Under the pieces are notes generated by a model. That model made no database searches. It saw nothing but the letters and a program-made list of their open reading frames with translations, and was not told the DNA's origin. From an uncultured Collinsella sp. (lineage in GTDB: Bacteria > Actinomycetota > Coriobacteriia > Coriobacteriales > Coriobacteriaceae), in NCBI GenBank assembly GCA_900768435.1, contig CAAGCW010000003.1, positions 4,599 through 68,598 of the forward strand: a stretch of 64,000 bases of DNA, given 5' to 3'. Shown here piece by piece: positions 3,253 to 40,276 of the stretch (its first letter is position 1; the number at the start of each line of letters is the position of its first letter). The position numbers were made by a program, and so were the translations under genes.

Positions 3253-3441
3253 CAGGTTCCATCCCCTCTATATCCAAGTGGCCAGAATCGCCCGGATCTT
3301 GCCGGACACCAAACACCCCTTACTCCGCAGGGGTATGGGGAATAATAGCAGAGCGCCCGAATGACACTGAATAACAGATGCCGTACGGGCGCTCGGATGG
3401 CGTGAATTGCACACGCCGATTTCATTGGTTCGAAGAGACGA

Positions 3442-4464: not shown

Positions 4465-4614
4465 GAAACCCCCATTTCCGCTGACGGGGTACAAAAGCCC
4501 ACGTCACGCTTTGCTACAGTAAAGTTTGACCATGGTACCAGAAGAAATAGACCAGCTCGGTGAAAAACTCGACAAGTTGGGATGGAACGAGATTCGGCGC
4601 CCGCGACGCCACCC

Positions 4615-4941
4615 CTATATAAGGCTCAAGACGATATAGAGTACGATGCCCGAGACGCAGCACCACAGCATCGATTTTGTCTTGACCGCCACGACCACGA
4701 CGCCGGCGGCCGCAATCCAGGGAACCAAGGCAGGCCAGAGCCCCGCGTCGAACGCGCCGGGACTCACCAAGTCGTTGGCGACCAGCGCGGCAAAGGCAGC
4801 GGGCGGGATATAGCCCAGGGCCTCGGTAATACGGGGCGACAGGGTCCGCCCGCGCAAGGCGAACGCCGGCGCGATGCGAAAGAACGCGATAGCAGCCCAC
4901 GACGACAGCCACAGAACCAAGAACTCGTTAACGGGCATCGC
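4615..4941 (-). CDS. azlD: Branched-chain amino acid transport protein AzlD
   Basis: About 105 aa hydrophobic protein. Overlaps the azlC stop by 14 nt, the typical azlCD arrangement. Confidence 0.65.
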   Translation of the reverse strand, partial: AMPVNEFLVLWLSSWAAIAFFRIAPAFALRGRTLSPRITEALGYIPPAAFAALVANDLVSPGAFDAGLWPALVPWIAAAGVVVVAVKTKSMLWCCVSGIVLYIVLSLI

Positions 4942-5620
4942 GGGCACCTCTTCCGTCAAATACAGCATCGCACGCCAGCGCAATGGTAATGCCGACCACG
5001 ACGCTTGCCGGCACGGCAATATTCACGAGGCCCAAGAACTTGCATACGGCGACGGACACCGCGCCCGAAACCGCCGCGACAACGTTGCCGCGCGACAGCC
5101 GCTGCGAAAAGAGCAGGCAGATAAAGAGCGAGGTGCAGACAAAGGCTGCAATGGCGGTGGGAACATCGACAACGGCGCCGACGATGGCGCCCGTCGTACA
5201 CGATACGCCCCATGTTGCGATAAGGATCACGTTGAGCACAAAGGACTCGCGCGGGCCCCAATCCTCCCCTTCAACCAACTTGGCAAGCGAGATGCCATAT
5301 GCCTCCTCGGTAAGTGTCGCGGCAACAGCCAGCGTCTGACGCTTCGAGGCACCCGTCAGATGCGACGTGATCGATGCCGAGTAAAGCGCAAAGCGCGAGG
5401 AGATGGCAGCAACGCTCGCGACGATCGACGCCGCAGGCACACCTGCCAGCCACAGATTGCAGATCATAAACTGCCCGCTGCCCGTCACGAACGTGCTGCT
5501 CAGAGCAAAGACCATCCAGGGTTCCATTCCCGTCTGCCCCATGATCATTCCGCACGGCGCGCCTATTGCAACATAGGTAAGCATCACTGGCCAGACGGTT
5601 CTAACGATTTTGAGCACCAT
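4928..5620 (-). CDS. azlC: AzlC-family branched-chain amino acid permease
   Basis: Polytopic membrane protein with AzlC-like sequence. Start placed at MVLKIVRT (internal ATG of the longer ORF). Confidence 0.65.
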   Translation of the reverse strand: MVLKIVRTVWPVMLTYVAIGAPCGMIMGQTGMEPWMVFALSSTFVTGSGQFMICNLWLAGVPAASIVASVAAISSRFALYSASITSHLTGASKRQTLAVAATLTEEAYGISLAKLVEGEDWGPRESFVLNVILIATWGVSCTTGAIVGAVVDVPTAIAAFVCTSLFICLLFSQRLSRGNVVAAVSGAVSVAVCKFLGLVNIAVPASVVVGITIALACDAVFDGRGARDAR

Positions 5621-5746
5621 ACGCTTCTCATCCTGACAAGGTCTCCGAGCCGCATGTAGCGACACGGCAGAATCATCATCCGACAGCAACCGAGTTCGCC
5701 TACAATTGCCACCGGATCGAAAGACACAACTTTTTAGGAAGTCATT

Positions 5747-6559
5747 ATGACAGCTATCGATCGAGACCGGGCGCGCGCGGCCTTCAAAAGCTACACCGAT
5801 GCCTACGACGCCACCAACCCACGCATCGCGCTCAAAATCGAGCATACGTACCACGTGGCCGAGGCATGCGATGCCGTAGCACGCGAGCAGGGCTGGTCGT
5901 CAGAAGATATTGACCTGGCATGGCTTTGCGGCCTGCTACACGATATGGGCCGCTTTGAGCAGTTGCGGCGCTGGGACACCTTTAAGGACGCCGAGAGCAT
6001 GAGCCATGCAGCGCTGGGCATCGAGGTCCTCTTTGGCGAGAATCCCGCCGATGCACCCGCCGTAACGAGCATCCGCGACTTTATCGATGACCCGGCAGAA
6101 GATGAGCTCATCCGAGCGAGCATTGCCTATCACAGCGATTTTCGTCTACCCGCGCAGCTCGACGAGCGTACGCGGAGCTTCTGCGATATCGTGCGCGATG
6201 GTGACAAGATCGACATTATGCGCACCATCGCCGACAGCACCGTCGACACCATCCTCAAGGTGGATGAGGACGCGTTTCTAGCCAGTCGCTTCTCGGCACC
6301 GACGCTTGCCGCCTTTGACGAGCACCGCTGCGTCACGCGCGATGAGCGCGATGAGCCCGCAGACTACCTGGTGGGACTCATCTGCTTTATGTTTGAGCTC
6401 GTCTATCCAGCGAGCCGCGCGCTGGCGCGCGAACAGGGCGATATCCACCGCCTGCTCGATGCGCCCTTTGGCATTGCACGGCCCTTTACCGACCCCGCCA
6501 CGCAGGCAACCTGGAGCCGCCTAAAGGACGAGATGCGCGACTGGCTGACGCGCGCTTAG
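5747..6559 (+). CDS. HD-domain phosphohydrolase
   Basis: Metal-binding H...HD motif (LLHDMGR) with later DGDKID. RBS aggaag. Confidence 0.7.
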   Translation: MTAIDRDRARAAFKSYTDAYDATNPRIALKIEHTYHVAEACDAVAREQGWSSEDIDLAWLCGLLHDMGRFEQLRRWDTFKDAESMSHAALGIEVLFGENPADAPAVTSIRDFIDDPAEDELIRASIAYHSDFRLPAQLDERTRSFCDIVRDGDKIDIMRTIADSTVDTILKVDEDAFLASRFSAPTLAAFDEHRCVTRDERDEPADYLVGLICFMFELVYPASRALAREQGDIHRLLDAPFGIARPFTDPATQATWSRLKDEMRDWLTRA

Positions 6560-7761
6560 CGCTCAAGCTGAGCCAGCAGCTCCTCAACGATCTCAACGGC
6601 ATCGCCGACGACCTTATACTGGGCAGCACCGAAGATGGGGGCATCCGGGTCCTCATTGATGGCGACAATGCACTCCGCCCCACCGATGCCGGCGAGATGC
6701 TGGATAGCGCCCGAGACACCGATGCTCACGAGGAGCTTGGGCGAGACCGATACACCCGTCTGGCCAATTTGGTGGCGATACTCCAACCAGCCTGCCTCCA
6801 CAATGGGACGCGTGCAACCAAGCTCGGCACCCAGGGCATCGGCGAGCTTTCGCATCAGGGGCAGATTCTTCTTGGAGCCGATGCCGCGGCCCACCACGAC
6901 CAGACGCTCGGCATCGGCAATTGAGGCCTGCTGTCCCCACTCCTCGGCGGGAATCGAGATCTCGACGCGGGCCTTAACGTCATCCGCAAGCACTACCTGG
7001 GTAATCGTGCCGGAGCGGCTATAGTCAAACTCGGGCGCCTTAAAGATGCCGGGGCGCACCGTTGCCATCTGAGGACGGTGGTTGGGGCAGATAATGGTGG
7101 CCATCAGGTTGCCGCCAAACGCCGGGCGTGTCTGCTGCAGCAGACCCGTCTCCGTATCCATCGAAAGCACCGTGCAATCGGCCGTAAGACCCGTCTGCAA
7201 GCGCACGGCCACACCGGGCGCCAGCTCGCGACCAAAGGCGGTCGCGCCGTACAGAATGGCCTCGGGCTTGCGCTCGGCTACCAAATCGCAGATCAAGCGA
7301 GCGTAGACCTCCGCGTCGTTCTGACGCAGGCGCTCGTCACGACAGACCAGAACTTCGTCCGCACCGGCGCAAATCAGATGCTCCAGGTCCCCGAGTGAGC
7401 CCTCGGGGCTCATGCCGACCAGTGCCACCAGACGGCAGCCGCGGGCATCGGCAAGCTCGCGCCCCTTGCCCATGAGCTCGAAGGCCACGGATGCAACGGC
7501 ATCGTGCTCGTCAGTCTGCACGAAGATCCAGATGTCTCGATATGCGTCAAGGTCTGCCGCGCCGGCGGCCTCGTCGCGCTCAATCGAGATGGCGTTGACG
7601 GGGCAGGCATCGACGCACCCACCGCACAGGATACAGCCGTCGGTTACGCGGGCACAGCGATTGGGGCGCTCACCCTCCACCACAATGCCGCCCGAGGCGC
7701 AGGCGCGAACGCAGCGACCGCAGCCGATACAGGCTTCGCTATCGATAATCAGCCCGCTCAT
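6556..7761 (-). CDS. etfA: Electron transfer flavoprotein alpha subunit with N-terminal 2x[4Fe-4S] ferredoxin domain (LctC-like)
   Basis: Two CxxCxxCxxxCP motifs in the first 60 aa, followed by the EtfA FAD-binding region. Its ATG abuts the etfB stop (ATGGCATAGATG). Confidence 0.8.
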   Translation of the reverse strand: MSGLIIDSEACIGCGRCVRACASGGIVVEGERPNRCARVTDGCILCGGCVDACPVNAISIERDEAAGAADLDAYRDIWIFVQTDEHDAVASVAFELMGKGRELADARGCRLVALVGMSPEGSLGDLEHLICAGADEVLVCRDERLRQNDAEVYARLICDLVAERKPEAILYGATAFGRELAPGVAVRLQTGLTADCTVLSMDTETGLLQQTRPAFGGNLMATIICPNHRPQMATVRPGIFKAPEFDYSRSGTITQVVLADDVKARVEISIPAEEWGQQASIADAERLVVVGRGIGSKKNLPLMRKLADALGAELGCTRPIVEAGWLEYRHQIGQTGVSVSPKLLVSIGVSGAIQHLAGIGGAECIVAINEDPDAPIFGAAQYKVVGDAVEIVEELLAQLER

Positions 7762-8583
7762 CTATGCCATCCCCTCAATAATCTTGGCAAGTTTTACCGC
7801 CTGCTCGGACGCCGTTCCCTCAACGGCCTCGCACGTTTGGTCACGGTCGGGCACAAACGAGCGCACGACCTGCGTCGGTGATCCGGCAAGGCCGCAACGC
7901 GAGGGATCGGCGTTTACGTCGGCAGCGCTGGCCACACGCACGTCTGCATCCTCGGCCGCGCGAATACCGGCAATACTCGGCATGCGCAGCTGGCCAATCT
8001 CCTTGGCGGTCGTCATCGCACACGGCATCTCCAGGTACACCGTCTCCTCGCCGGCATCGCAGCCGTGAACGAGCGCCAGCGAGCCACACGTCGTAAATCC
8101 CGCGCTCTGCACACAGCTCACGTCGGTCACGCAGGGGACCCCAAAGGCGACGGCCAGCTCGGGGCCGATCTGGGCCGTATCGCCGTCCACTGCCATCTTG
8201 CCGCAGATGAGCAGGTCAAAGTCCTCATCGAGTGCCTCGATGCCGCATTTGAGGGCATAGGTGGTGGCTAGGGTATCGGCGCCCGCAAAGGCGCGATCGG
8301 TCAGCAGCAGCGCGTCGTCGGCACCGCGGGCGATGCAGTCGCGCAGCAGCGATTCGGTCGCGGGGATGCCCATCGACACCACCGTCACACGCACGTCCAT
8401 GCCAAAGCCGATAAAGTCGTCCTTCAGCGCTAGCGCACATTCGAGGGCACTTGCATCGAAGGGATTAACGACCGCCTGCTTGCCATCACGCACGATAGTA
8501 TTGGTCTTGGGGTCCATCTTGACCTCGGTGCTTCCGGGCACCGCCTTGACGCACACCACCATATGGAAATCACTCATCTTCAC
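7762..8583 (-). CDS. etfB: Electron transfer flavoprotein beta subunit
   Basis: EtfB-like N-terminus MVVCVKAVPGSTEV. GTG start overlaps the TGA stop of the upstream FAD oxidase. Confidence 0.8.
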   Translation of the reverse strand: MKMSDFHMVVCVKAVPGSTEVKMDPKTNTIVRDGKQAVVNPFDASALECALALKDDFIGFGMDVRVTVVSMGIPATESLLRDCIARGADDALLLTDRAFAGADTLATTYALKCGIEALDEDFDLLICGKMAVDGDTAQIGPELAVAFGVPCVTDVSCVQSAGFTTCGSLALVHGCDAGEETVYLEMPCAMTTAKEIGQLRMPSIAGIRAAEDADVRVASAADVNADPSRCGLAGSPTQVVRSFVPDRDQTCEAVEGTASEQAVKLAKIIEGMA

Positions 8584-11420: not shown

Positions 11421-12020
11421 ATGGACATCACCAGGAACATGAACGGAGCCAGAGCGCTCGTCGTGGGCGCAGGGCTCGCGCTCGCGCTCGCAATGGGCGC
11501 CGCCCCGACGCCAGCTCTGGCAGCCGGGCGCGTTGGAACCACGAAAGTAATGGTCAGGACCGAGATCGACAACGTAGAGTTCAAAGTTCCGACGGTTATT
11601 CCCTTCGTCGCCAAGGCCGACGGCACGCTTCAGGGCCCCTCAGAAGACGCGACCACCATCGACAATCATTCGGCCTACGGCATCCATGTCACCAACATGA
11701 AGATCGACGCCATGAACACCTGGACCATTGCCGCCGACGCCAAGGCCGGAACCGCGCAGAATTCCATCGACTTTAAGGTCGGCCCCGACGGCGCACTCCA
11801 GAACGCCAGCGCCGCAATGCAGGAGACGGGCCTCGATCTTTCCAAGAATGCAGCCTTCGACATGGGCTACCAGGGCATTGCCGGCGGCACGGACAAAATT
11901 AAGCTCAAGACAAGCGGAAACGTCGCCCGCGTCACGCGCGACATCTTCCGCGTAACCGGCGAAGGCGATCAAGTTGCAACGATCACCTGGACGGTCGAGC
12001 CCGGTGCGCACACGGCATAA
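11421..12020 (+). CDS. Hypothetical secreted protein (199 aa) with two T-W-T-[IV] motifs
   Basis: Signal peptide ending ALAAGR. Beta-rich composition. Motifs NTWTIAAD and ATITWTVEP. Confidence 0.55.
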   Translation: MDITRNMNGARALVVGAGLALALAMGAAPTPALAAGRVGTTKVMVRTEIDNVEFKVPTVIPFVAKADGTLQGPSEDATTIDNHSAYGIHVTNMKIDAMNTWTIAADAKAGTAQNSIDFKVGPDGALQNASAAMQETGLDLSKNAAFDMGYQGIAGGTDKIKLKTSGNVARVTRDIFRVTGEGDQVATITWTVEPGAHTA

Positions 12021-12285
12021 GGCCGTCGCCCTGGCCACCGCCGTCAGTATCCTAGCGTTTGGGCCAGCCATGGCCTTTGCCCAGCAAGAACAGGCGCAGG
12101 CCGCCACGCAGGTGACGGTCGACCTCTCGGAGCTCGACCGCGGCAACTGCAAGGAACCGTTGGCACAGACAGACGACAGACGATGGCTCTTGGCAGCAGG
12201 CGCCACGGCAGCAGGCGCGGGAACCGCCGGCCTCGGTCTGCACATCAAACGCAGCCAGAAACGAAACACGGACAGGCCGCACTAA
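12004..12285 (+). CDS. Small secreted protein with a C-terminal hydrophobic anchor and basic tail (sorting-signal-like architecture)
   Basis: GTG start gives the signal peptide VRTRHKAVALATAVSILAFGPAMAFA. C-terminus is LAQTDDRRW-LLAAGATAAGAGTAGLGL-HIKRSQKRNTDRPH. Confidence 0.45.
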   Translation: MRTRHKAVALATAVSILAFGPAMAFAQQEQAQAATQVTVDLSELDRGNCKEPLAQTDDRRWLLAAGATAAGAGTAGLGLHIKRSQKRNTDRPH

Positions 12286-12303: not shown

Positions 12304-13734
12304 ATGGCATCGAAGAACCTTTTGCCCGTCGTCGCACTCTGCGGCGCGCTCGCAACCGGAACGCCTGTCGCCGCTTGGGCGACTCCCGTCATGGCAGACT
12401 CCTTACCAGCAGCCCTAAGCTCCGCACCAAATCCGTCGAGCGCCATTGCGTGCAAGCGTTTTTCGTTCGCACAGGCCGCAATCTCAACCTCGGGATGCCT
12501 TCGTCGTAATACGGACGGCTCGATAGTCGTGGATATCAATCGTTCGAACAAGGCAAACGGCTCCCAGGCGGGGTGCGCCGTCTGCACGTGGCGCTCGATT
12601 GTGCTCGATGCAGATGGCGATCCGTGCGATTTGGGGTTGCGCATCGATATCGCTTCGGTCGATGACTCGGCGAACGGAGCGAAGGTCGCCTTCGACGGTG
12701 CGTTTTTCGAGAAAGGAGGCGGTATATGTCTGGGCTGCGCCGCCGCGAATGCAGACGATGTGCAGCCCACCCTCTCATTCACGGCATCGCTGCGGCTGAC
12801 CAAGGCGGGCACCGATGCCATCGCGGCGGGAGAAGCATCCCTGCTGTTCTACGCCGCCAGCACCGAAGAAACAGACATTCATTTCGAGAAGCCGGCCGGA
12901 TCGCTCAGCCTTACGCGCGGGACGGAGGCAGGCCCTATTGCGATCGATACCCACACGCTAGGCAGGCAACGCATTCTTGCCGACCCGGCGCTTCTCGAGA
13001 TGGAGTGGAACGGATCCGGAGCCGTCGGGATTGTCCCCTCCGCGCTTGACGCCAAGACGCTCCCCTCAAACGACGAACCCATCAACGCAACCATACAAGA
13101 AGAGAGCACGGACAAAGAAGCAGGTGCGGGCGACACGCCGTCGCCGACAAACAGCGTCCCAGCTTCTTTCGAAGCACCGAATGAGCCCGCTACCGGTCCA
13201 AACGATCCCGAGCTCGCGGACAGTCTGGGGCTTGCTGATCCTCAGGAGATCGATGAAGGTAACTGCTGCGTGCTTGCCGCCCTCGACCACACAGAGGTCA
13301 TCGATGCTGCAAACATCGAAGTTGCCGCCGCCAATCAGCCCGTCCGCAAGTCGGCCATCATCGCATTTCCCGAATCCATCGAAGTCGTCTTTTTGCCATC
13401 GGGCGAGGTCGTGGCCCCAACACTGCTCACCTTGTTGGGCGCCAAGAATACTCGAAACGAAATTAAAAAGGTCACGGTTGTCGACCCTGCAACCACCGCT
13501 AAACTGCGTCTATACGCCGTTGCCCCAGACGGAGGCAAGACCTTGGAATTCGATGGCGACACACTTCTAGCCTGGCGACGTCTGGACATTATGCAAGACG
13601 TCTCGTATCAGATCGAACTCGAAGGGTTTGATCGTGCCCGCGATGCCAATATCATCGCCGCGGCTATTGAATCCCCGCAGCGGCTTATGACACTGCGCTT
13701 TGACTACTACCCCTATGTCCCGACAACCACCTGA
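12304..13734 (+). CDS. Large hypothetical secreted protein (476 aa) with a Cys-containing N-terminal region
   Basis: RBS aaggag. Signal peptide MASKNLLPVVALCGALATGTPVAAWA. No recognised domain. Confidence 0.55.
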   Translation: MASKNLLPVVALCGALATGTPVAAWATPVMADSLPAALSSAPNPSSAIACKRFSFAQAAISTSGCLRRNTDGSIVVDINRSNKANGSQAGCAVCTWRSIVLDADGDPCDLGLRIDIASVDDSANGAKVAFDGAFFEKGGGICLGCAAANADDVQPTLSFTASLRLTKAGTDAIAAGEASLLFYAASTEETDIHFEKPAGSLSLTRGTEAGPIAIDTHTLGRQRILADPALLEMEWNGSGAVGIVPSALDAKTLPSNDEPINATIQEESTDKEAGAGDTPSPTNSVPASFEAPNEPATGPNDPELADSLGLADPQEIDEGNCCVLAALDHTEVIDAANIEVAAANQPVRKSAIIAFPESIEVVFLPSGEVVAPTLLTLLGAKNTRNEIKKVTVVDPATTAKLRLYAVAPDGGKTLEFDGDTLLAWRRLDIMQDVSYQIELEGFDRARDANIIAAAIESPQRLMTLRFDYYPYVPTTT

Positions 13735-13852
13735 GGCTTAAATGCTGCGCATCATTCCTAATACCACTTATATAACGTATTAGATGAGTCGCGATGTGCC
13801 TCGCATTTCGTTCTGCTACGATTGCCACGTTGGCATCAATACAGGAGGGCTC

Positions 13853-14569
13853 ATGCCGGGCTTGGGAACAATCATCAACGTTGCGCTTTTAGTTGCGGGC
13901 GGTCTTTTGGGATTAGCGGGCGGCCGCTTCATTACACCGCGCATCCAAGACACGCTCATGAAAGCATCGGGGCTGTGCGTCCTGTTTATCGGCCTGGGCG
14001 GCACCATGCAAAAGATGCTCATCATCGATGGAAAGGCGCTAGCGACCACCGGTACCACCATGCTCATCGTCTCATTTGCGCTCGGTTCGCTCATCGGCGA
14101 GGCCATCAACTTGGAGGCCTCCATCGAGAACCTTGGCGAATGGCTCAAGCGCAAGACTGGCAGTGAGGGCGATAACGAGTTCACCAACGCTTTTGTCTCG
14201 ACTTCACTCACCGTGTGCATCGGCGCCATGGCCATTGTGGGATCGATCCAGGACGGCCTGCTCGGCGACTGGTCAACGCTTGCCCTCAAGGGCGCACTGG
14301 ACTGCATCATCGTCTGCACCATGACGGCGTCGCTCGGACGCGGCTGCATCTTCTCGGCCCTGCCCGTCGCCGTGTTCCAGGGGACGATCACGTTGTTTGC
14401 CGGCGCGCTCTCCCCCATCATGACCACGGCAGCCCTCAACAGCCTTTCGCTCGTAGGCTCCATGCTCATCTTCTGCGTCGGCGTCAACCTCATCCGTCCT
14501 CAGACCTTCCGCACGGCCAATATGCTTCCCTCCGTCGTCATCGCCGTCATATACGCCCTCCTGTTCTAA
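13853..14569 (+). CDS. DUF554-family membrane protein
   Basis: Six-TM protein resembling YdfK/DUF554. RBS aggaggg before the ATG at 13853. Confidence 0.6.
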   Translation: MPGLGTIINVALLVAGGLLGLAGGRFITPRIQDTLMKASGLCVLFIGLGGTMQKMLIIDGKALATTGTTMLIVSFALGSLIGEAINLEASIENLGEWLKRKTGSEGDNEFTNAFVSTSLTVCIGAMAIVGSIQDGLLGDWSTLALKGALDCIIVCTMTASLGRGCIFSALPVAVFQGTITLFAGALSPIMTTAALNSLSLVGSMLIFCVGVNLIRPQTFRTANMLPSVVIAVIYALLF

Positions 14570-14603
14570 ATCTATCAACGCAGCGGTATCTCGAACATCT
14601 GTT

Positions 14604-14653
14604 TGATGCTGTGCTATGATATGAGGTCACCGTAGCTGCGTTCGAGAGGAGGA
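14604..14653 (+). promoter_or_regulatory. Putative sigma70-like promoter and RBS for the TerB-ATPase-helicase operon
   Basis: ttgatg, 11 nt spacer, extended -10 tgctatgat, then RBS gagaggagga before the GTG at 14657. Confidence 0.35.
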
Positions 14654-14656
14654 GCG

Positions 14657-16411
14657 GTGGCCGACCAGGACATCAAGATGCTCATCGAGCGCATTATGGC
14701 CGAGGCCCGGACCCATCAGTCCGCCCGCTTCTCAAACGAAACCTACGCAGACGAGCCGATTCTCAAAACCGGCCGACAGATGCAGAATTTCCTCCCCGAC
14801 CAGTACCGTAAAATGCGCGAGATATCGCGCTGGCAGGATGACCCCAAGGGCGGTGCGGGCCGCTGGCTTTCGGAAGCCGAGCTTTTTTACCGCCAGGGCC
14901 TGCTGATGGCCGGCTTTGAGGACGACTGTCCCTACAACGGCACCTTTAAGTCGTACTTTCCCACCTACAACGCCATGAGCGACCGGCAACTGCGCGGCTA
15001 CTTTACCTGGCGTGCCCAAGTGCGCCGCGGAACCGTCGAGGAAACGTCTACGTCCTTTGCCTTTCTGTATCTCTATGAGCTGATCTGCGGCATTGGCATA
15101 GATGACCCGCTCGATGGTTTTAACAAGATCAAGGCTTTTTGGGATGTCTATCGCGCCTTCGAGCCCGGCATCGACCGGTTTGCGCGCGTGTGGCTGCAAG
15201 ATTACGCCGTGTTCCACGGGCTCGACCCCAAGCTGCTTCGCGACTCTAAAACCGTCATGTTCGATAACGCCCTTATCGAACTGCGGCGCGCGGCACGAGA
15301 CCTTGTACCGGCACCGTCCGGCCAGACCCCTAAGCGTCGCAAAACCTCCGAGCCCACGCTCCCCCTTCCGCCCGATGAGGTGCGCGAGGAGCGACTCATG
15401 GCCGCCATCAACGCCCTCTCCACGTACAACCTAAGTAGCTCGCGGCTCGACCGCAGCCACCACCGCGATCTGCGCCACGTGGCGTGCGCCGTGTATGTCC
15501 GCATGGCGCGCTACTATGACACGCACCGAAAGACCGGCATCGTGGCAAGTTTATTTGGGGAGGAGACGGCAATGCCCTACACCATGTTTGCCTCGGCCGT
15601 ATTCTTTGCGCCCGAGCGCCACGAGGACTGCGAATACCGTCTGGACCCCATCCATATCTACCGTTGCCAAAACGGCTTTTGGGAATGCATGCGTATCCAC
15701 GGTAGTAGGCAAAAGAGCAGCAAGCTCGGTGAAATGATGCGCGCCTGCGACCAACGCCTGCGCCTGGCGCTGGACCCTGCCCATCCCCTTAAGGAAGAAA
15801 AGGCCCCCAAATATCTGGCCAAGATTATCGATGACGAGATTGTGGCATGGCTTTCGTGGGACGCCGCACACCAGCCCGTCAAGATCGATATCGATCTGAG
15901 TCAGCTGGGGCATATTCGGAGCGCCGCCGCACAAACGCGCGAGGCGCTTTTGATTGACGAGGAACGCGAGGACGGCGCGTCCGCAGAAGCCGAGGCAGCG
16001 GACTCAGGGCAACCAGAAGCCGAGCCCGTAGCCGACGCGATGGTCGAGGCGGTCGCGGCGGCTGCAGGGCAGGACGAGTCCGACGAGCCGACCATATCCA
16101 CCGAACAGTTTGGTGTCGTGGCACCGCTTCTCGCGCCGACGCCCGCGTTCGCAGCTGCTACGCCCGCTGACGCCACAAACGAACTCGCGCCCGCCGCAAA
16201 CGCCTATCTCCGCGCTCTGCTCGAGCACAACGCAGTACAGGCGGAATCGGCGGTAGTGCAATCGGAGCAGAGCGAGGACATGCTCGTCGATACCATCAAC
16301 GAGGCGCTCTTTGACCTGGTGGGCGACACCGTAATTGAATTTAGCGCAGCAGGGCCGCAGATTATCGAGGACTACGAAGCAGACGTGAGAGGATACCTAG
16401 ACCATGAGTGA
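14657..16411 (+). CDS. sngA: TerB-N / TerB-C domain protein (Shango SngA-like)
   Basis: N-terminal region with the YFTWR signature (RGYFTWRAQVRRG) typical of TerB-N, and an acidic C-terminal region consistent with TerB-C. ATGA-coupled to the next gene. Confidence 0.6.
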   Translation: MADQDIKMLIERIMAEARTHQSARFSNETYADEPILKTGRQMQNFLPDQYRKMREISRWQDDPKGGAGRWLSEAELFYRQGLLMAGFEDDCPYNGTFKSYFPTYNAMSDRQLRGYFTWRAQVRRGTVEETSTSFAFLYLYELICGIGIDDPLDGFNKIKAFWDVYRAFEPGIDRFARVWLQDYAVFHGLDPKLLRDSKTVMFDNALIELRRAARDLVPAPSGQTPKRRKTSEPTLPLPPDEVREERLMAAINALSTYNLSSSRLDRSHHRDLRHVACAVYVRMARYYDTHRKTGIVASLFGEETAMPYTMFASAVFFAPERHEDCEYRLDPIHIYRCQNGFWECMRIHGSRQKSSKLGEMMRACDQRLRLALDPAHPLKEEKAPKYLAKIIDDEIVAWLSWDAAHQPVKIDIDLSQLGHIRSAAAQTREALLIDEEREDGASAEAEAADSGQPEAEPVADAMVEAVAAAAGQDESDEPTISTEQFGVVAPLLAPTPAFAAATPADATNELAPAANAYLRALLEHNAVQAESAVVQSEQSEDMLVDTINEALFDLVGDTVIEFSAAGPQIIEDYEADVRGYLDHE

Positions 16412-17699
16412 TACCGCATCCGCAGCACCTCGCGTGCCCAAGCGCGTCGCTGCCGTCATTCTCAACTCGCTCAAGGGCGGCGTGGTCCCGCGCATCGGCC
16501 TTCCTTACATCACCGTAGGGCGCGAGGTCGAGATCCGCGCCCTGCTCACCGATCTGAGTCTCATCGCCGACGGTGGCGCGAGCTTCCGCTTTCTGGTCGG
16601 TCGTTACGGCGCCGGCAAGAGCTTTTTGCTCCAGACTATCCGCACGCACGCCATGGGCGAGGGGTTCGTCGTCGCCGATGCCGACCTTTCCCCCGAGCGC
16701 CGACTGCAGGGCGGTCAGGGGCAGGGCCTCGCTACCTACCGCGAACTCATCCGCAACATATCGACCAAGACGCGCCCCGAGGGCGGCGCACTCAACCTTA
16801 TCCTAGATCGTTGGGTTGCCTCGTGTGCCGATGCCGACGAGTCGGCCATCAATGCCCAGCTCGCTCCGCTCGAGGAGATGGTCCACGGCTTCGATTTCAC
16901 CCGTATGCTCCGTCGCTATCGTACGGCCGTCGCAGAGGGAGACGAAGAGGCCATGAGCCGCGTGACTAAATGGATTCGCGGCGAGTATCGCACCAAGAGC
17001 GAGGCGCGCGCCGAGCTAGGCTCCTCGACCATCATCAGCGACGACGACTGGTACGACTACGTCAAGCTCATCGCACGCTTTTTGGTCTGCAGCGGCTACA
17101 AGGGCATGCTGGTGCTCATCGACGAACTTGTAAACCTGTACAAGATTCCCAACGCCATCACGCGCCAATACAACTACGAGAAGATCCTGACCATGTACAA
17201 CGACACGCTCCAGGGCAAGGCGCAGTACCTGGGCATGATCATGGGCGGCACGCCAACCTCCATCGAAGACCGCCGCCGCGGCGTGTTCTCCTACGAGGCC
17301 CTGCGCAGCCGACTCGCTCAGGGCCGCTTTGCGCGCGAAGACCTTAAGGACATGCTCGCGCCCATCATCCGCCTGCAGCCACTCACCTATGAGGAGTTGC
17401 TGGTGCTCATCGAAAAACTCATGCAGATCCATGCCGGCTACTTTGGCTGGACGCCCACGCTTGCCGAAAACGACTTGGTGGACTTTCTCAAGATTGAGTT
17501 TGGTCGCGTGGGAGCCGATACGCACCTTACGCCGCGCGAGGTCATTCGCGACTTTATCGAGCTGCTCGATATCCTGTGTCAGAACCCCGATGCCAACGTG
17601 GCCGAGCTGCTGCAAAGCGTCGGTGGCGATGCTCTCGCGCCGGCCAGCGAGTCGTCCGCATCATCCGACGAGCGCAACTTCGCCGAATTCACCATCTAA
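16404..17699 (+). CDS. sngB: P-loop ATPase (DUF2791/BrxD-like; Shango SngB-like)
   Basis: Walker A GRYGAGKS and a Walker B-like LVLIDE. About 430 aa, consistent with defence-associated ATPases. Confidence 0.6.
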   Translation: MSDTASAAPRVPKRVAAVILNSLKGGVVPRIGLPYITVGREVEIRALLTDLSLIADGGASFRFLVGRYGAGKSFLLQTIRTHAMGEGFVVADADLSPERRLQGGQGQGLATYRELIRNISTKTRPEGGALNLILDRWVASCADADESAINAQLAPLEEMVHGFDFTRMLRRYRTAVAEGDEEAMSRVTKWIRGEYRTKSEARAELGSSTIISDDDWYDYVKLIARFLVCSGYKGMLVLIDELVNLYKIPNAITRQYNYEKILTMYNDTLQGKAQYLGMIMGGTPTSIEDRRRGVFSYEALRSRLAQGRFAREDLKDMLAPIIRLQPLTYEELLVLIEKLMQIHAGYFGWTPTLAENDLVDFLKIEFGRVGADTHLTPREVIRDFIELLDILCQNPDANVAELLQSVGGDALAPASESSASSDERNFAEFTI

Positions 17700-17815
17700 C
17701 CTGCCAAAAAGGGACAGATTTATTTTGGAAGGTTTTATCTGGACAAACGTTAAGACAGCAGCGCAGCCACCCGTTGCCCATCAACCTGAGAGGTTCATTT
17801 TTGAGAGGAGGCCCC

Positions 17816-20254
17816 GTGAACGCCTTTGAGCGGTATGCCCCGTTTATCCAAGACTTCATCTACTCCCACGATTGGGAGAGCCTGCGCTCGATTCAGGTTG
17901 CGGCGGCAGACGCCATCTTTAACACGCAAGACAATGTGCTCCTGACGGCATCCACGGCTTCCGGCAAAACCGAGGCGGCCTTCTTTCCCATCCTGACCGA
18001 GTTTTGGGAAAACCCGCCCGCAAGCGTGGGCACCCTCTACATCGGCCCCCTCAAAGCACTCATCAATGACCAGTTTGTCCGCCTCAACGACCTCTGTGAA
18101 GAGGCCGATATTCCCGTCTGGCACTGGCATGGCGATGTCTCGCAGTCGCACAAGGCCAAGCTCATTAAAAAGCCGAGAGGCATCTTGCAGATTACACCTG
18201 AATCGCTCGAGGCGCTGCTCATTCACAAGCACATGGCGATTCCGCGCATGTTTTGCGACCTGCGCTATGTGGTCATCGACGAGGTGCATTCGCTCATGCG
18301 TGGCGACCGCGGCGGGCAGACGCTCTGCCTGATCGAGCGACTCTCGCGCATGGCCGGCGTGCAGCCCCGTCGCATTGGCCTTTCGGCTACCATCGGCGAC
18401 CCCGAGCGCACAGGCGCCTTTCTCTCGCAGGGAACGGGACGCGACTGCGTTATCCCCCGTTTTGAGGAACCGCGCCGCGTGTGGCGCATTTCCATGGAAC
18501 ACTTCTACAACTCGGGCCCCCAAGCGCAGCAGCGAGGATTCCAGAGCACGGGCCCTCAAGAAGCCGACGTGCTTGCGTGCGAGCGCATCGAGGCCGCGGT
18601 GCCTACGGCATTGCCCGCCGGTACCCAGGACAGACGCCGCGGCGGACAGCGCGCGCAGGAGGAACGCCGTCAGCGTCGCGAACAGGCACAGGGCGAGGCT
18701 ACCCCCAGGGATCACCGCACTTCTTCGGCCCCCGAGGGCGAAGTCGATATCCCGCGAGCAACCGAGCAGGCGCTCCTCAACCCCACCGACACCGCGCCCG
18801 ACAACGCCGACCCCGGCATGGGCTACATCTTTGAACACACGCGTGGCCGCAAGTGCCTGGTCTTTGCCAACTCGCGCGAGGAGGCGGAGGCCGTGTGCTC
18901 CATGCTGCGCAGCTACTGCGAGAACCGACACGAGCCCGACCGCTTTCTCATCCACCACGGCAATCTTTCGGCATCGCTGCGCGAGACGGCCGAGGAGCTG
19001 ATGCGCGACGAAGAGCAGGCGCAGACTACCGTCACCACCTCCACGCTGGAGCTCGGTATTGATATTGGCCGCCTGGAGCGAGCGTTTCAGATCGATGCAC
19101 CGTTTACCGTCAGCTCCTTTTTGCAGCGCATGGGCCGCACGGGACGCCGCGATCTTCCGCCCGAGATGTGGTTTGTCATGCGCGAGGAAGAGCCCGAGCC
19201 GCGCACGATGATGCCCGAGACCATCCCGTGGAAGCTCCTGCAGGGTATCGCACTCGTACAGCTCTATCGCGAGGAAAAGTGGGTCGAGCCGCCCGAGCTC
19301 GATCGACTCCCCTACAGCCTGCTCTATCACCAAACCATGTCGACGCTTGCCAGCACCGGCGAGGCCACGCCGGCCGAACTTGCTCAGCGCGTGCTCACGC
19401 TCAGCTATTTCCATCGCGTCTCGGCCGATGACTATCGCGTGCTGCTGCGCCACCTCATCAAGATCGACCATATTCAGGTTACCGAGGGCGGCGGGCTCAT
19501 CGTGGGTCTCGCGGGCGAGCGCGTCATTAACAACTTTAAGTTCTACGCCGTGTTCCAGGAAAACGAGGAGTTCACCGTTCGCAGCGAGTCGGCCGAGTTG
19601 GGCACGATCGTCAATCCGCCACCGCCCGGCGAGCGCATCGCCATTGCCGGACACTGCTGGATGGTCGAGGAAGTGGACTGGAAGCGTCACACCGTCTTTG
19701 CCACGCAGGTAAAAGGTCGCGTGCCGGCCTACTTTGGCGATTGCCCCGGCGACATCAACACACACGTGCTCGAACGCATGCGCAAGGCGCTGAACGAGCA
19801 CGCGTCATATCCGTACCTCATGGGTAACGCGCGGGCCCGCCTTGCACAGGCTCGTCATACGGCCGAGATTTCGGGCGCGGGAGCCAAGCCGCTCATCAAC
19901 CTGGGCGGCGACACCTGGGTACTCTTCCCCTGGCTGGGCAGCTACGCCTTCCTGGCGCTCGAGCGCATGCTCAAGATTAAATGTGCCGCCGAGCTGGGAC
20001 TTCGAGGGCTCGATCCGTCACGTCCGTACTTTATGCAGTTTAAGATGAAGGCCGACGAAGAGAGGTTCTTTGAGGTGCTCGCCGCCGAGGCCGAGAAGGA
20101 CTTCGATCCCATCGAGCTCGTCTATCCCGGCGAGGTGCCCTACTTTGATCGTTACGACGAGTTCGTTCCCGAGGAGCTTGTGCGCAAGGGCTTTGCCGAA
20201 GGCGTGCTCGACATAGAGGGCATGAAGCAACGCATCCTCAGCTGGACCAGCTAA
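17816..20254 (+). CDS. sngC: DEAD/DEAH-box superfamily-2 helicase (Lhr-like; Shango SngC-like)
   Basis: Motif I TASGKT, DEVH box (VVIDEVHS), SAT (LSAT), a HELICc region (ELGIDIG, QRMGRTGR) and a roughly 290 aa C-terminal extension. GTG start with RBS gagaggagg. Confidence 0.6.
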   Translation: MNAFERYAPFIQDFIYSHDWESLRSIQVAAADAIFNTQDNVLLTASTASGKTEAAFFPILTEFWENPPASVGTLYIGPLKALINDQFVRLNDLCEEADIPVWHWHGDVSQSHKAKLIKKPRGILQITPESLEALLIHKHMAIPRMFCDLRYVVIDEVHSLMRGDRGGQTLCLIERLSRMAGVQPRRIGLSATIGDPERTGAFLSQGTGRDCVIPRFEEPRRVWRISMEHFYNSGPQAQQRGFQSTGPQEADVLACERIEAAVPTALPAGTQDRRRGGQRAQEERRQRREQAQGEATPRDHRTSSAPEGEVDIPRATEQALLNPTDTAPDNADPGMGYIFEHTRGRKCLVFANSREEAEAVCSMLRSYCENRHEPDRFLIHHGNLSASLRETAEELMRDEEQAQTTVTTSTLELGIDIGRLERAFQIDAPFTVSSFLQRMGRTGRRDLPPEMWFVMREEEPEPRTMMPETIPWKLLQGIALVQLYREEKWVEPPELDRLPYSLLYHQTMSTLASTGEATPAELAQRVLTLSYFHRVSADDYRVLLRHLIKIDHIQVTEGGGLIVGLAGERVINNFKFYAVFQENEEFTVRSESAELGTIVNPPPPGERIAIAGHCWMVEEVDWKRHTVFATQVKGRVPAYFGDCPGDINTHVLERMRKALNEHASYPYLMGNARARLAQARHTAEISGAGAKPLINLGGDTWVLFPWLGSYAFLALERMLKIKCAAELGLRGLDPSRPYFMQFKMKADEERFFEVLAAEAEKDFDPIELVYPGEVPYFDRYDEFVPEELVRKGFAEGVLDIEGMKQRILSWTS

Positions 20255-20276
20255 TTTAGGACGGGCAAACGATAGG

Positions 20277-21152
20277 CTAGTCGTGGAGGGCGGTACCGAG
20301 GAAGTCGGCATCGAAGGGCACGGCTTCGGCAAAGGTGTAGTCGCCATCGCTGGCAATGAGCAGGTAGTTTTCCTCGCCGCCGAACTCCGCATCGCCGCAA
20401 GGCACCACCCAAGCGTACTCGAACACCTCAAGCGCCGTGGCAACGCAATCGCGCAGGAACGTCACATCGCTCCCCTCGTTCGCGCTCACGATATTGGCAG
20501 CATAGATACCGCCGGGGTTCAGGCTGCCCCGCACCAAGCGCAGCGCCTCAACCGTTGCCAGCTCGCGCACGGGCTCGGCACCGCCAAAGCAATCGCTCAC
20601 GACCACATCGTAGCGACGATGCCCCACGCTCGTCACACCCAGATACGAGCGCGCCTCAGCGGTAATCACCCGCAAGCGGTCCCCCACCGCGCGCTCCAGC
20701 TCACTCAGGTAGAACCATCGACGTGCCAGACGCGTAATCTCGGCATCGTACTCAACGACGTCCATGTGCAGGCCCTCGTGCGACATCAGCGCGAACTTGG
20801 GATAGGCAAACCCGCCGCCACCCAGCATAAGCATGCGGTCGATGCCGTGGCCATAAGCGCCGCGCATGGCATCCTCGGCCTCAAACACATCGTCAAACGC
20901 ACGATAGTACGCAAAGACCGGCTCCGTCCAACGCTCACCAACGTAGCTCGCGCTTTGATAGACGCCGCCTTGCACCAACACGCGGACTTCGTCGCCGCCC
21001 TCATCGTGCACGCGCTTCACACGCGCTAACCCATTGCGGGTCCTCGCGACCTGCAGACAGGCAGCGCGAACAGCGACGGCGGCCGCACCAAGCGCCGCAG
21101 CGCCCAGGGCAACGCCGGCAACGACGCCAGCAGAAACACTCGGCTTGTTCAT
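20277..21152 (-). CDS. Membrane-anchored spermidine/spermine-synthase-like protein (PABS fold)
   Basis: N-terminal TM helix, then a class I MTase/PABS-like core (VLMLGGGGFAYP; DVVVSD). Its ATG abuts the Elp3 stop. Confidence 0.55.
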   Translation of the reverse strand: MNKPSVSAGVVAGVALGAAALGAAAVAVRAACLQVARTRNGLARVKRVHDEGGDEVRVLVQGGVYQSASYVGERWTEPVFAYYRAFDDVFEAEDAMRGAYGHGIDRMLMLGGGGFAYPKFALMSHEGLHMDVVEYDAEITRLARRWFYLSELERAVGDRLRVITAEARSYLGVTSVGHRRYDVVVSDCFGGAEPVRELATVEALRLVRGSLNPGGIYAANIVSANEGSDVTFLRDCVATALEVFEYAWVVPCGDAEFGGEENYLLIASDGDYTFAEAVPFDADFLGTALHD

Positions 21153-23159: not shown

Positions 23160-24062
23160 CTACTCCGAATCAAACGACATGTCGCCCGAATCGACCTCAA
23201 AACGATACGTGGCAGACTTGTCACCGTTATCGAATTCAAGATTCAAAATGGTCTCGCCGTCGTAGCCAAGCGGAAGGAAATCGCTCTCGAAGTCGCCGCT
23301 GCCCAAGGTGAGGCTCGCCTTAAAGCCCGTCGAGTTCGGAACCGTCATCTCCACATCGCCCGAGCCCACACTCACGTCCATCGACTTCGTGGGGGCCTGG
23401 TAAAGCTCGAACGTCACATCGCCCGAACCGACCTCAGCGCTGAGCGCATCAGTCACGCTGCCCGTAAACTCTACATCTCCCGCACCCAGGAAAAGATCGA
23501 AACCATCACAGATGACACCGGCAATCTGCAGATCACCCGAGCCCACGTGCGCGTTGACTCCCTTCAGATGTTCGGCAACACGGCGCGGCAGCTCAACCGT
23601 AACCGAGCGGTCAATTGCCTTACCGTCATCACTTCCAAACTGGGAAACCTTGAGCGTCGAGTCCTCGACGGATGCGATGTTCTGCGTCGCGGCCTTGGAG
23701 GCATCCATACCATTGGCAACGCGTCCCCGCTCGATAACGCGAGCCTTGTTGCCATCAACAACCTTGACGTCCACCGTAGCCGCATTGATATCGAAATCGA
23801 GGTAGCGAAACTCATCGGCATCAAAGGTCGTACACGAAAGCTGCTGAGGCCGAGCGGAATAGTTACCGCCATCGTTCATAAAATCGTCGTCGTCAACCAC
23901 ATCGTCAAAATCAGACAAATGGCCAGATAGAATACCGGTCGTACGCACCATATCAGAATGAGCCAATAGCCGCGAAGTGCCAAAGACAAGCCCGATGATG
24001 AGCACAAACGCTCCGATGCCAACGCCCAAGCGTACCTTGGATTCATGCGAAAGCTTCATCAT
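23160..24062 (-). CDS. DUF4097-family putative adhesin / beta-repeat protein with N-terminal TM
   Basis: Repeated GSGD[VL] beta-strand repeats in the C-terminal half. Start overlaps the XRE stop (ATGATGAAG). Confidence 0.55.
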   Translation of the reverse strand: MMKLSHESKVRLGVGIGAFVLIIGLVFGTSRLLAHSDMVRTTGILSGHLSDFDDVVDDDDFMNDGGNYSARPQQLSCTTFDADEFRYLDFDINAATVDVKVVDGNKARVIERGRVANGMDASKAATQNIASVEDSTLKVSQFGSDDGKAIDRSVTVELPRRVAEHLKGVNAHVGSGDLQIAGVICDGFDLFLGAGDVEFTGSVTDALSAEVGSGDVTFELYQAPTKSMDVSVGSGDVEMTVPNSTGFKASLTLGSGDFESDFLPLGYDGETILNLEFDNGDKSATYRFEVDSGDMSFDSE

Positions 24063-24775
24063 TCATCACCCTCTTTGGCAATCGGCTCAGCGGTAGTCGC
24101 GGTAGCCACGTCAGTATCAACCGCAGCGGAAGCATTCCGAACCCTAGCCACCACCGACGCCGAACCAACCTGAATATCCCCGCGCGCCCAATCGCCATCG
24201 AGCGCACGTGCCACCCAGTGATAGATGGGGATTGTAAAGAAGATCAGTGCGGGAAAGGGGCTGACACCAACCAGGAACATCAGTAAAAAGAACAGCAGCC
24301 AGCACACGGCCCAATACGGGAACGACTGGAACGGACCCTTCACCGGAGTCGGAGCGGCCGCGCCGCCGCCCGTCACCTGCGCCGTCGCCGCATTGGCGGC
24401 CTGCGCACTCCAGCTTGCCGCCTGCGCCGCCTTGGCTGCCGCGTCACTTGCCTGCGTTGCCGCCTCAGTCGCACGCGCCGCTGCCTCATGGGTGCGGGCG
24501 CGCTCTGCCGCCTCGGCCTCGCGCTGGCGGGCGCGGTCCTCGTTCTCAAACTCGATATCATCCTCGATCTCGTCGCTCGGATTAAGCAACTCGTCCAGAC
24601 TCACGTCATAGAGCTTGGCGAGCGAGATCAAATTCTCGGTATCGGGCGAGCTCTCCGCGCGCTCCCATTTACTGACCGCCTGGCGCGACAGGCCCAGCTT
24701 TCGCGCCAACCCCTCTTGGCTAAAACCCTTGCTGCGGCGAAGGTCGGCGAGCCGCTGCGCAGTTTCTACATTCAT
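24059..24775 (-). CDS. XRE-family HTH regulator with C-terminal TM segments
   Basis: HTH LADLRRSKGFSQEGLARKLGLSRQAVSKWE, an Ala-rich linker, then two TM helices. RBS aggagg. Confidence 0.7.
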   Translation of the reverse strand: MNVETAQRLADLRRSKGFSQEGLARKLGLSRQAVSKWERAESSPDTENLISLAKLYDVSLDELLNPSDEIEDDIEFENEDRARQREAEAAERARTHEAAARATEAATQASDAAAKAAQAASWSAQAANAATAQVTGGGAAAPTPVKGPFQSFPYWAVCWLLFFLLMFLVGVSPFPALIFFTIPIYHWVARALDGDWARGDIQVGSASVVARVRNASAAVDTDVATATTAEPIAKEGDE

Positions 24776-26939: not shown

Positions 26940-27062
26940 CTAAGTGAGTAGGCTTTTTGGCAATAGCCAAGCACAACCCGTAGGGCGAAAACTAAAACCG
27001 CAGGTAGAGCCCTTGCACAAAAACCGTGTGCTCGCAATATCGGAGAAAGACTACTCACTTAG
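26940..27062. repeat. 123-bp element bounded by a 13-bp terminal inverted repeat (copy 1)
   Basis: Ends ctaagtgagtagg ... ctactcacttag. Shares an internal aaaaccgcaggtaga block with copies 2 and 3. Confidence 0.7.
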
Positions 27063-27184
27063 TTCGCAACAGCACAAAACGGGTAGGCAGAACGCCCATT
27101 TCCTGCATTTTCTCGCGCGCAGGCACCCCGCGCCGCCGCTACGCCATAATGGATGGCGGACAAACGCGAGAGAAAGTTAACCGC

Positions 27185-40153: not shown

Positions 40154-40276
40154 CTAAGTGAGTAGGTCGTTTGGAAAATCTCAAGCAGACCGATTATCTT
40201 GTTTTGTAAAACCGCAGGTAGATAGCTTGTTGTAAAACGGTCTGGTCGGCAAAACGCGAATAGCCTACTCACTTAG
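40154..40276. repeat. 123-bp TIR-bounded element (copy 2)
   Basis: ctaagtgagtagg ... cctactcacttag. About 85% identical to copy 3. The right TIR encodes the L-S-E-stop end of the DUF559-like gene. Confidence 0.75.

Follow-up and report, generated by a model that had tools for sequence, protein, structure and literature searches.

Whether three adjacent genes in the chromosome of a gut Collinsella form an anti-phage system, and whether they sit there as movable cargo or as a resident part of the chromosome, are the two questions raised by the locus described here. The genes lie between positions 14657 and 20254 of a stretch of 64,000 nucleotides from an uncultured Collinsella sp. (assembly GCA_900768435.1, contig CAAGCW010000003.1, forward strand), and this whole stretch is referred to below as the window. 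The initial annotation of the window, made from its letters alone, had recognized a TerB-N/TerB-C protein, a P-loop ATPase and a DEAD/DEAH helicase and had taken the triad for a Shango-type system carried as defence cargo. Shango was described in E. coli (Millman et al. 2022, 10.1101/2022.05.11.491447) and has been studied in P. aeruginosa PA14 (Johnson et al. 2023, 10.1101/2022.11.11.516204), and it protects against phages in both hosts. Here we present profile matches by which the triad is almost certainly a complete and intact Shango system (SngA-SngB-SngC) in the chromosome of a bacterium of the Collinsella aerofaciens group, together with a comparison of loci according to which it belongs to the fixed core chromosome of Collinsella, descends vertically and is held under strong purifying selection, a state unusual for a defence system.

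All three genes are read from the forward strand in the order A-B-C; the open reading frames (ORFs), their ribosome-binding sites (RBS) and the two spacers are as follows.

14570-14656 (+): spacer 5' of sngA including its RBS, read from the sequence; 94.6% identity across Collinsella loci.
14657-16411 (+): sngA, GTG start, 584 aa; RBS GAGAGGAGGAG at 14644-14654.
16404-17699 (+): sngB, ATG start, 431 aa; RBS GAGAGGA at 16387-16393.
17700-17815 (+): spacer between sngB and sngC with the RBS of sngC, 116 nt; 78% nucleotide identity across loci.
17816-20254 (+): sngC, GTG start, 812 aa; RBS GAGAGGAGG at 17803-17811.

The three co-directional genes of 584, 431 and 812 aa had been measured exactly in the initial annotation. 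Its left boundary at 14604 falls within the upstream spacer, the first in-frame start codon being at 14657, and the ATGA overlap of 4 nt that it described between the first two genes is in fact an overlap of 8 nt, ATGAGTGA, at 16404-16411.

The identity of the triad rests on matches to the PADLOC profile hidden Markov models (HMMs), which stood in for the validated Sng proteins of E. coli and PA14 in this comparison. Gene 1 matches SngA with an E-value of 7e-75 (aa 30-579 on positions 54-525 of a model of 528) and has no next-best PADLOC family. Gene 2 matches SngB at 5.2e-170 and 564 bits (aa 9-429 on 4-437 of 439), followed by BrxD at 134 bits and 2.5e-39, and gene 3 matches SngC at 1.7e-275 and 914 bits (aa 2-805 on 2-715 of 720), followed by BrxHI at 407 bits and 4.5e-122 over aa 338-804. 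E-values of 7e-75, 5e-170 and 2e-275 exclude chance as the source of the triad's identity, and the Shango assignment of the initial annotation is borne out from end to end of each protein.

A Pfam search of gene 1, which the initial annotation had proposed as a check, returned both expected domains, TerB_N (PF13208; 8.8e-31, 107.7 bits, cut-off 25) and TerB_C (5.7e-15, 56.3 bits, cut-off 26.3). Gene 2 matches BrxC_BrxD (PF10923) at 1.3e-149 and 499 bits, and gene 3 matches DEAD and Helicase_C, with no Pfam domain C-terminal of aa 460. None of the three proteins passes any NCBIfam model. SngB reaches 134.3 bits against the equivalog model NF033438 for BrxD of the bacteriophage exclusion (BREX) systems, below its cut-off of 350. 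SngC reaches 193.5 bits against TIGR04121 (ligase-associated DEXH helicase; cut-off 850), 164.5 bits against PRK13767 (cut-off 849), 110.7 bits against TIGR03817 (cut-off 874) and 83.8 bits against PRK09751 (Lhr; cut-off 1496).

A BREX context elsewhere on the DNA, which the initial annotation had named as a finding that would speak against Shango, was not encountered: SngB stays below the BrxD cut-off, and PglX, PglZ, PglW and BrxC are absent from the Pfam scans of 40 other window ORFs, which include all those of at least 270 aa. These 40 ORFs, the largest ORF of the window measuring 946 aa, hold only metabolic, transport and regulatory genes. Of the other objection considered at that time, a housekeeping Lhr/RecQ helicase with conserved synteny in related genomes, one half holds and the other does not, since the synteny is conserved but the helicase falls under every Lhr/RecQ cut-off.

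The conservation of the locus was followed in one genome per GTDB species with SngC as the query. At least 596 loci encode a SngC relative, and the best 80 of them were inspected. All 80 belong to Collinsella or Coriobacteriaceae, share 95-96% SngC identity and contain a full-length SngC ORF (80/80 species-representative loci). The gene order is identical in each of these 80 loci that reaches far enough: a flavin adenine dinucleotide (FAD)-oxidase, then, further along, DUF554 - sngA - sngB - sngC - spermidine-synthase-like - Elp3, and beyond these a DUF3516 helicase. The immediate neighbours had been named correctly from the letters alone, as profile matches confirm for DUF554 (3e-66), the spermidine-synthase-like gene (NF037959, 2.3e-19) and Elp3 (TIGR01211, 4e-120).

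This sample of 80 is conditioned on SngC, so metagenome contigs were then scanned with the upstream DUF554 gene alone, a scan that samples only the C. aerofaciens group. In 75 of the 78 metagenome loci with room downstream sngA follows directly after DUF554, and the other three carry sngA as frameshifted high-scoring segment pairs (HSPs); an empty site, that is DUF554 without sngA, occurs in none of these 78 loci chosen by DUF554 alone. The SngC cluster at 96% identity holds 26,009 member sequences.

Pairwise Nei-Gojobori estimates of the synonymous divergence (dS) and of the ratio of non-synonymous to synonymous divergence (dN/dS), each against the window, gave the following values.

sngA: dN/dS 0.129, dS 0.19.
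sngB: dN/dS 0.053, dS 0.39.
sngC: dN/dS 0.049, dS 0.44.
Seven flanking genes: dN/dS 0.02-0.10, dS 0.11-0.42.

In the more distant C. tanakaei (loci L081-L083) sngA-sngB and sngC are found at the corresponding position, and Elp3 and the DUF3516 helicase follow downstream of them. About 5 kb with three unrelated genes has been inserted there exactly in the sngB-sngC spacer, and all three sng ORFs are intact; the insertion (about 3050-8000 of that locus) carries an Fe-hydrogenase-like gene, an NMT1-type binding protein and an ATP-binding cassette (ABC) ATPase. Between the window and C. tanakaei the identity amounts to 78% for SngB, 79% for SngC and 79% for the DUF3516 helicase, and to 65% for Elp3, 47% for SngA and 46% for the spermidine-synthase-like neighbour.

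Hallmarks of mobility were sought around the triad. The 64-kb window contains no tRNA or tmRNA, no direct or inverted repeats of note flank the triad, and no integrase was found at the locus. The GC content of the triad (0.58-0.63) equals that of its flanks, and there is no discontinuity in GC or skew. PADLOC reported no defence match among the neighbouring genes except a generic XRE-type helix-turn-helix (HTH) protein. Given the constant synteny, the lack of an empty site, the lack of mobility hallmarks and the even GC content, the description of the triad as defence cargo is not supported. The core status of Shango in Actinobacteriota is no new observation, as it has already been remarked on at survey level: the HRGM2 survey of gut genomes reported Shango in Actinobacteriota core genomes (10.1101/2024.12.11.627901).

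The second protein of the triad, announced as a Walker-A/B ATPase, has both motifs intact, GRYGAGKS at aa 66 (16599-16622) and LVLIDE at aa 236 (17109-17126). From its profile matches SngB is predicted to be a BrxD-like AAA+ ATPase of the ORC/Cdc6 type. BrxD itself is a standalone ORC/Cdc6-type AAA+ ATPase that is tightly paired with BrxHI and has been proposed as its loader or activator (PMC12839542).

SngC carries the helicase motifs GKT (50-52), DEVH (155), SAT (190) and QRMGRTGR (437), all of them intact, and the catalytic motifs are invariant in its homologues. Its AlphaFold2 (AF2) model, with a predicted local distance difference test score (pLDDT) of 80.9 and a predicted template modelling score (pTM) of 0.79, shows two RecA lobes (RecA1-RecA2) followed by a winged helix, a small beta-barrel and an alpha+beta C-terminal domain. 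Two regions of the protein are listed here.

18515-18814 (+): lineage-specific disordered insert between RecA1 and RecA2, aa 234-333, rich in R, Q, E, A and P, from the alignment and the AF2 model.
19223-20251 (+): C-terminal accessory region with winged helix (about aa 470-563), beta-barrel (about 586-632) and alpha+beta domain (about 649-812), boundaries approximate.

Neither a nuclease nor a zinc ribbon nor a Pfam domain was found in the C-terminal region. The best Foldseek match to the model is the Lhr-core of M. smegmatis on single-stranded DNA (5v9x, E 1.3e-27), at template modelling (TM) scores of 0.61 normalised to the query and 0.64 normalised to the target, a resemblance at the level of the fold only. 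MrfA (6znp, E 3e-23) comes next, then Hel308/Brr2, and Lhr-core and MrfA are also the best PDB matches by sequence, at 15-19% identity. On these grounds and those of its profile matches SngC is classed as an Lhr/BrxHI-like DExH helicase of superfamily 2 (SF2). The published architecture of BrxHI comprises a Ski2-like SF2 helicase, a winged HTH, a HAS barrel and a domain like the Lhr C-terminal domain (CTD) (PMC12839542), and in the tree of the Hachiman paper SngC clusters with BrxHI, DruE and DpdJ, a grouping that may be a separate clade of defence helicases (PMC12278908).

The initial annotation had seen in the low-complexity insert and in the missing four-Cys zinc ribbon of DUF1998-type helicases the signs of a divergent subtype. 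The ribbon is indeed missing, as there is no CxxC motif anywhere in SngC and no DUF1998 Pfam match, but its absence is normal for SngC. The R/Q/E-rich insert likewise exists between the RecA lobes, although its extent had been drawn too narrowly (18600-18730). A library-wide HMMER search returned 1,409 SngC-related representatives at E-values of at most 1e-30, and full-length relatives of 35-50% identity mostly measure 700-770 aa, their match being split into a block of about aa 1-235 and another of about aa 336-805. In an alignment of 12 sequences the window SngC has about 100 residues at the insert site, most relatives have a much shorter linker, and three have intermediate inserts of unrelated sequence at the same site, which marks the inter-lobe linker as a length-variable hotspot of the family. 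The AF2 model assigns aa 236-329 a pLDDT below 50 except for one short helix (277-291), 19 of the 32 differences of the window SngC from the Collinsella consensus fall in the insert, and across Collinsella loci 82% of its nucleotides are identical, compared with 92% in the remaining sngC. As it is predicted to be disordered, evolves fast and is located at a length-variable position of the family, the insert is read as a relaxed flexible linker rather than a sign of a separate subtype.

SngA is collinear with its distant homologues, and 72 diverse homologues were used to build its AF2 model (pLDDT 84.4). Its predicted parts are the following.

14849-15244 (+): helical TerB_N core, aa 65-196, with the motif RGYFTWR...VR.G; Pfam PF13208.
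15377-15949 (+): central alpha/beta domain, aa 241-431, confident in the AF2 model.
15962-16177 (+): disordered acidic Ala/Glu-rich linker, aa 436-507, pLDDT below 50.
16190-16402 (+): C-terminal module with the element order H-H-H-E-E-H, aa 512-582, from the AF2 model.

The YFTWR signature of TerB-N, which had been spotted in the first gene from the outset, lies at aa 115-119, and R113, Y115, F116, R119, R123 and G125 are invariant in the 72 homologues. The acidic C-terminal region, also noticed then, is an Ala/Glu-rich segment of about aa 431-535 with a net charge of -19; at the nucleotide level positions 15947-16261 form the most variable coding part of sngA (85% identity across loci). The C-terminal module may be winged-helix-like, a weak assignment from the secondary structure in the model, and speculatively it is a candidate adaptor to SngB and SngC. 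Pfam TerB (PF05099) does not match SngA, and among 120 homologues listed for a distant SngA none is annotated with TerB; the 'TerB domain' ascribed to Shango in reviews thus really means TerB_N plus TerB_C. Membrane-like hydrophobic segments are absent from SngA, SngB and SngC, whose maximal Kyte-Doolittle means over 19 residues are 1.07-1.41.

Among more distant relatives the pair of SngB and SngC is kept and the gene in front of it changes. Three distant loci with 43-45% SngC identity have the canonical order TerB_N/TerB_C - B - C among housekeeping genes, and in distant canonical triads B and C abut or overlap. A SngC relative of 67% identity (L084-L086) has no TerB gene upstream and an ISL3 transposase nearby, one of 36% identity has an ORF of 108 aa upstream of B-C, and one of 50% identity has there a protein of 461 aa without Pfam match, beside Mrr/Uma2/nSTAND-like genes. 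Relatives of the SngB-SngC pair without a TerB_N/TerB_C gene were met at L084-L086, L168-L169 and L174. The sole detectable similarity of the 461-aa protein to SngA is in the last 40 residues of SngA. We infer from these comparisons that SngB-SngC may be a constant engine and the first gene an exchangeable partner, and together with the shared C-terminal module in SngA they suggest a modular system of this kind.

What the system does in Collinsella can be approached from its relatives. By analogy with these it is most likely still an anti-phage or anti-foreign-DNA system, and the favoured explanation as a whole, a core-fixed Shango with a defence role and a loader-plus-motor mechanism, appears to us reasonably probable. 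The mechanism as such, inferred as it is from related systems, is put forward tentatively and may well be wrong. In it SngC would be the motor, a Lhr-core-like 3'-to-5' single-stranded DNA translocase or helicase with winged helix, small beta-barrel and Lhr-CTD-like DNA-binding domain and with no nuclease, its insert of about 100 aa forming a flexible linker between the lobes; Lhr is a 3'-to-5' single-stranded DNA translocase that unwinds duplexes (PMC5758891). SngB would oligomerise and then load or activate SngC where DNA is abnormal, for instance at intermediates of phage replication or recombination, in a role modelled on that proposed for BrxD-BrxHI of type 2 BREX. SngA would act as sensor or regulator, with the Arg/aromatic TerB_N and the central alpha/beta domain recognizing an infection cue and the C-terminal winged-helix module, on its disordered acidic linker, docking to the SngB-SngC engine or to DNA. 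Using ATP, the system would protect the cell by unwinding or stripping the replication intermediates of the phage, which might be passed to host nucleases; remodelling of DNA is preferred to killing of the cell because no recognizable toxic or nuclease effector is present in SngA, SngB or SngC.

Several points weigh against this explanation. Core fixation, strong constraint and the lack of a mobile or defence-island context are atypical for defence and would suit a housekeeping role just as well. Of the helicases with solved structures the closest, Lhr and MrfA, act in DNA repair (PMC5758891), and the idea of a loader was taken over from what has been proposed computationally for BrxD/BrxHI. 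In the main rival explanation SngABC of Collinsella would serve mainly host DNA metabolism (crosslink or fork repair, R-loop removal, like Lhr and MrfA) with anti-phage activity secondary. It would account for the same synteny in 80/80 of the best loci and the lack of an empty site in 78, for dN/dS values of 0.05-0.13 like those of the housekeeping flanks, for the better conservation of SngB and SngC (78-79%) than of Elp3 (65%) to C. tanakaei and the persistence of the sng genes there even with the operon split, for repair helicases as nearest solved structures, for the lack of a nuclease or toxin effector and for the housekeeping surroundings of the three distant canonical triads as well. We nevertheless hold it to be unlikely: the family members of E. 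coli and P. aeruginosa protect against phages, SngC shares with BrxHI, DruE and DpdJ a clade whose defining trait is immune function (PMC12278908) and stays far under all NCBIfam Lhr/RecQ equivalog cut-offs (for example 193 against 850 bits), and restriction-modification (RM) and Cas systems have also been reported in core locations (10.1101/2024.12.11.627901). A related and improbable idea is that SngB-SngC was domesticated into an essentially housekeeping genome-maintenance engine, kept throughout the history of the genus and even with a split operon, with SngA as a fast-evolving sensor exchangeable via its C-terminal module. Were this so, Shango would be a general DNA-surveillance module whose outputs include anti-phage activity alongside others, and its cellular substrate could naturally be sought in Collinsella.

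Also at odds with the favoured explanation, the literature favours 'membrane surveillance' for TerB proteins, although SngA is without a predicted membrane segment. If Shango worked in that way, SngA would sense perturbation of the envelope by phages through TerB-related domains, and the ATPase and helicase would shut the cell down in an abortive infection. Reports of TerB proteins as membrane-associated and the grouping of Shango with 'membrane surveillance' systems speak for this; the composition of SngA (TerB_N/TerB_C, no match to PF05099), the low hydrophobicity of every Sng protein (Kyte-Doolittle maxima of 1.07-1.41) and the lack of a pore-forming or other toxic effector make it quite unlikely. 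A last adverse observation is that sng genes are frameshifted in about 10 of the 78 metagenome contigs (L103, L107, L111, L115, L118, L120, L121, L132, L143 and L148), with HSPs in different frames. Together with the uncoupling of sngB and sngC, by a spacer in the window and by 5 kb in C. tanakaei, this could point to a system in decay that no longer works and is simply carried along in the chromosome. Coverage lies at 0.9x-3.6x in at least five of the ten contigs, however, and low-coverage frameshifts are probably assembly errors, while L118 (10.5x) and L120, with several shifts across sngA, sngB and sngC, may be true pseudogenes; with dN/dS of 0.05-0.13 over a dS of about 0.2-0.4, all catalytic motifs intact and SngC full-length in 80/80 species-representative loci, decay is very improbable. 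Least credible of all is the idea that a type 2 BREX (Pgl) system once stood here, lost its methyltransferase and PglZ core and kept only its BrxD-BrxHI pair. The homology of SngB to BrxD (2.5e-39) and of SngC to BrxHI (4.5e-122) and the tight linkage of the BrxD-BrxHI pair in type 2 BREX (PMC12839542) agree with it, but the Sng models score far higher (564 against 134 bits for SngB, 914 against 407 bits for SngC), SngB reaches 134 of the 350 bits asked of a BREX BrxD, PglX, PglZ, PglW and BrxC are missing from the 40 scanned window ORFs, no BREX core genes are adjacent in the 160 genome and metagenome loci inspected, and the translationally coupled TerB_N/TerB_C gene upstream is a Shango signature. 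A core-fixed Shango that probably still serves in defence is the reading preferred here.

For sngC a longer frame from a start at 17576 (892 aa) was considered. It would overlap sngB by 124 nt and add 80 Arg-rich aa, close homologues start with MNAFERYAPF and distant ones align from there; in view of these points and of the RBS in front of the GTG at 17816 the longer start was rejected. An antisense ORF of 668 aa at 17795-19801 (-), wholly within sngC, is taken as a probable artefact of high GC content because the sense frame holds all homology. A scan of 13700-20500 returned no sigma-70-type promoter, with terminator-like sites only at chance rate, and an Rfam scan of the entire window gave no matches.

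Some other genes of the window deserve mention. Just upstream of DUF554 two divergent ORFs without Pfam, NCBIfam or PADLOC match are found at 11640-12269 (-), 209 aa, and 12304-13734 (+), 476 aa. Their copies across the 80 loci mostly have either 56-65% or 88-100% identity to the window, with few intermediates, which suggests two divergent allelic forms at a fixed position. Downstream of the triad a DUF4097 'toastrack' protein and an XRE-type HTH protein, the former 3'-adjacent to the latter, are encoded at 23160-24062 (-) and 24059-24775 (-). The DUF4097 protein falls into two identity groups among the 80 loci (64-77% and 83-96%), the HTH protein gives generic RmrA, RstR and C-protein HTH matches, and the two could be a variable regulator/effector pair.

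A second helicase, of the Ski2/Hel308 type, is encoded 7 kb downstream of Shango at 27026-29866 (+); it has 946 aa, matches DUF3516 at 2.7e-184, shares 79% identity over the portion that the C. tanakaei locus contains, shows only partial PADLOC matches to the helicase cores of HamB and SngC, and is probably housekeeping. Further along, 29946-31703 (-) encodes a protein of 585 aa with DUF2130 (1.7e-91) in its C-terminal half and no PADLOC match. The ORF of 377 aa at 40265-41398 (-) has a sub-threshold match to a MTES_1575 restriction-endonuclease-like model (6.6e-6, 26.5 bits against a cut-off of 38.2) and no PADLOC or NCBIfam match. A gene of the choloylglycine (bile-salt) hydrolase family at 60780-61808 (-), 8e-90, is consistent with a gut Collinsella origin.

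Shango is already in the catalogues of defence systems, and the locus would be annotated as such by an automatic run of DefenseFinder or PADLOC. In C. aerofaciens, a commensal abundant in the human gut, Shango is fixed, strongly constrained and never lost, and Collinsella offers a clean background for asking whether Shango is purely antiviral or also takes part in host DNA maintenance. It also suits the question of how a TerB_N/TerB_C protein talks to an engine of the BrxD/BrxHI type shared with type 2 BREX.

Among known systems, the Ter (tellurite-resistance) cluster is set apart from this locus by its TerB (PF05099), which SngA lacks; no Ter-family domain occurs in any scanned window ORF either, so the locus is no tellurite-resistance locus. 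Lhr-core (5v9x) and MrfA/YprA (6znp) share with SngC the DExH motor, the winged helix and the beta-barrel. They differ in that SngC has neither the C-terminal tetramerisation or glycosylase half of Lhr nor the DUF1998 four-Cys domain, and in that it is encoded with SngA and SngB and not with Nei2 or MrfB. In type 2 BREX the core genes pglX (methyltransferase), pglZ, brxC/pglY and pglW accompany brxD-brxHI. It has in its BrxD-BrxHI an ORC/Cdc6-type ATPase beside a Ski2/Lhr-like helicase, and BrxHI resembles SngC in the layout of winged helix, beta-barrel and Lhr-CTD-like domain. The Collinsella locus lacks PglX, PglZ, PglW and BrxC, its SngB stays under the BrxD cut-off and its partner is a TerB_N/TerB_C protein, but the two systems are likely to share a loader-plus-motor logic, as judged from the likeness of the pairs. 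In 2012 Anantharaman, Iyer and Aravind reportedly proposed a DNA-processing module made up of a TerB-N/TerB-C protein, an AAA+ ATPase and an SF2 helicase, and the Collinsella triad appears to be the same one.

The Shango systems of E. coli and P. aeruginosa PA14 remain the closest counterparts. The host of the Collinsella locus, in contrast to theirs, is an anaerobic gut actinobacterium, and the locus is core-fixed, whereas Shango of P. aeruginosa is located in the variable defence hotspot cDHS1 (10.1101/2022.11.11.516204). SngC of Collinsella has its disordered inter-lobe insert of about 100 aa and SngA has lineage-specific low-complexity linkers, and sngB and sngC lie 116 nt apart instead of abutting. 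What the systems have in common is that the same three families follow each other in the same order on the same strand, the first two genes are translationally coupled, and the Sng HMMs match almost from end to end.

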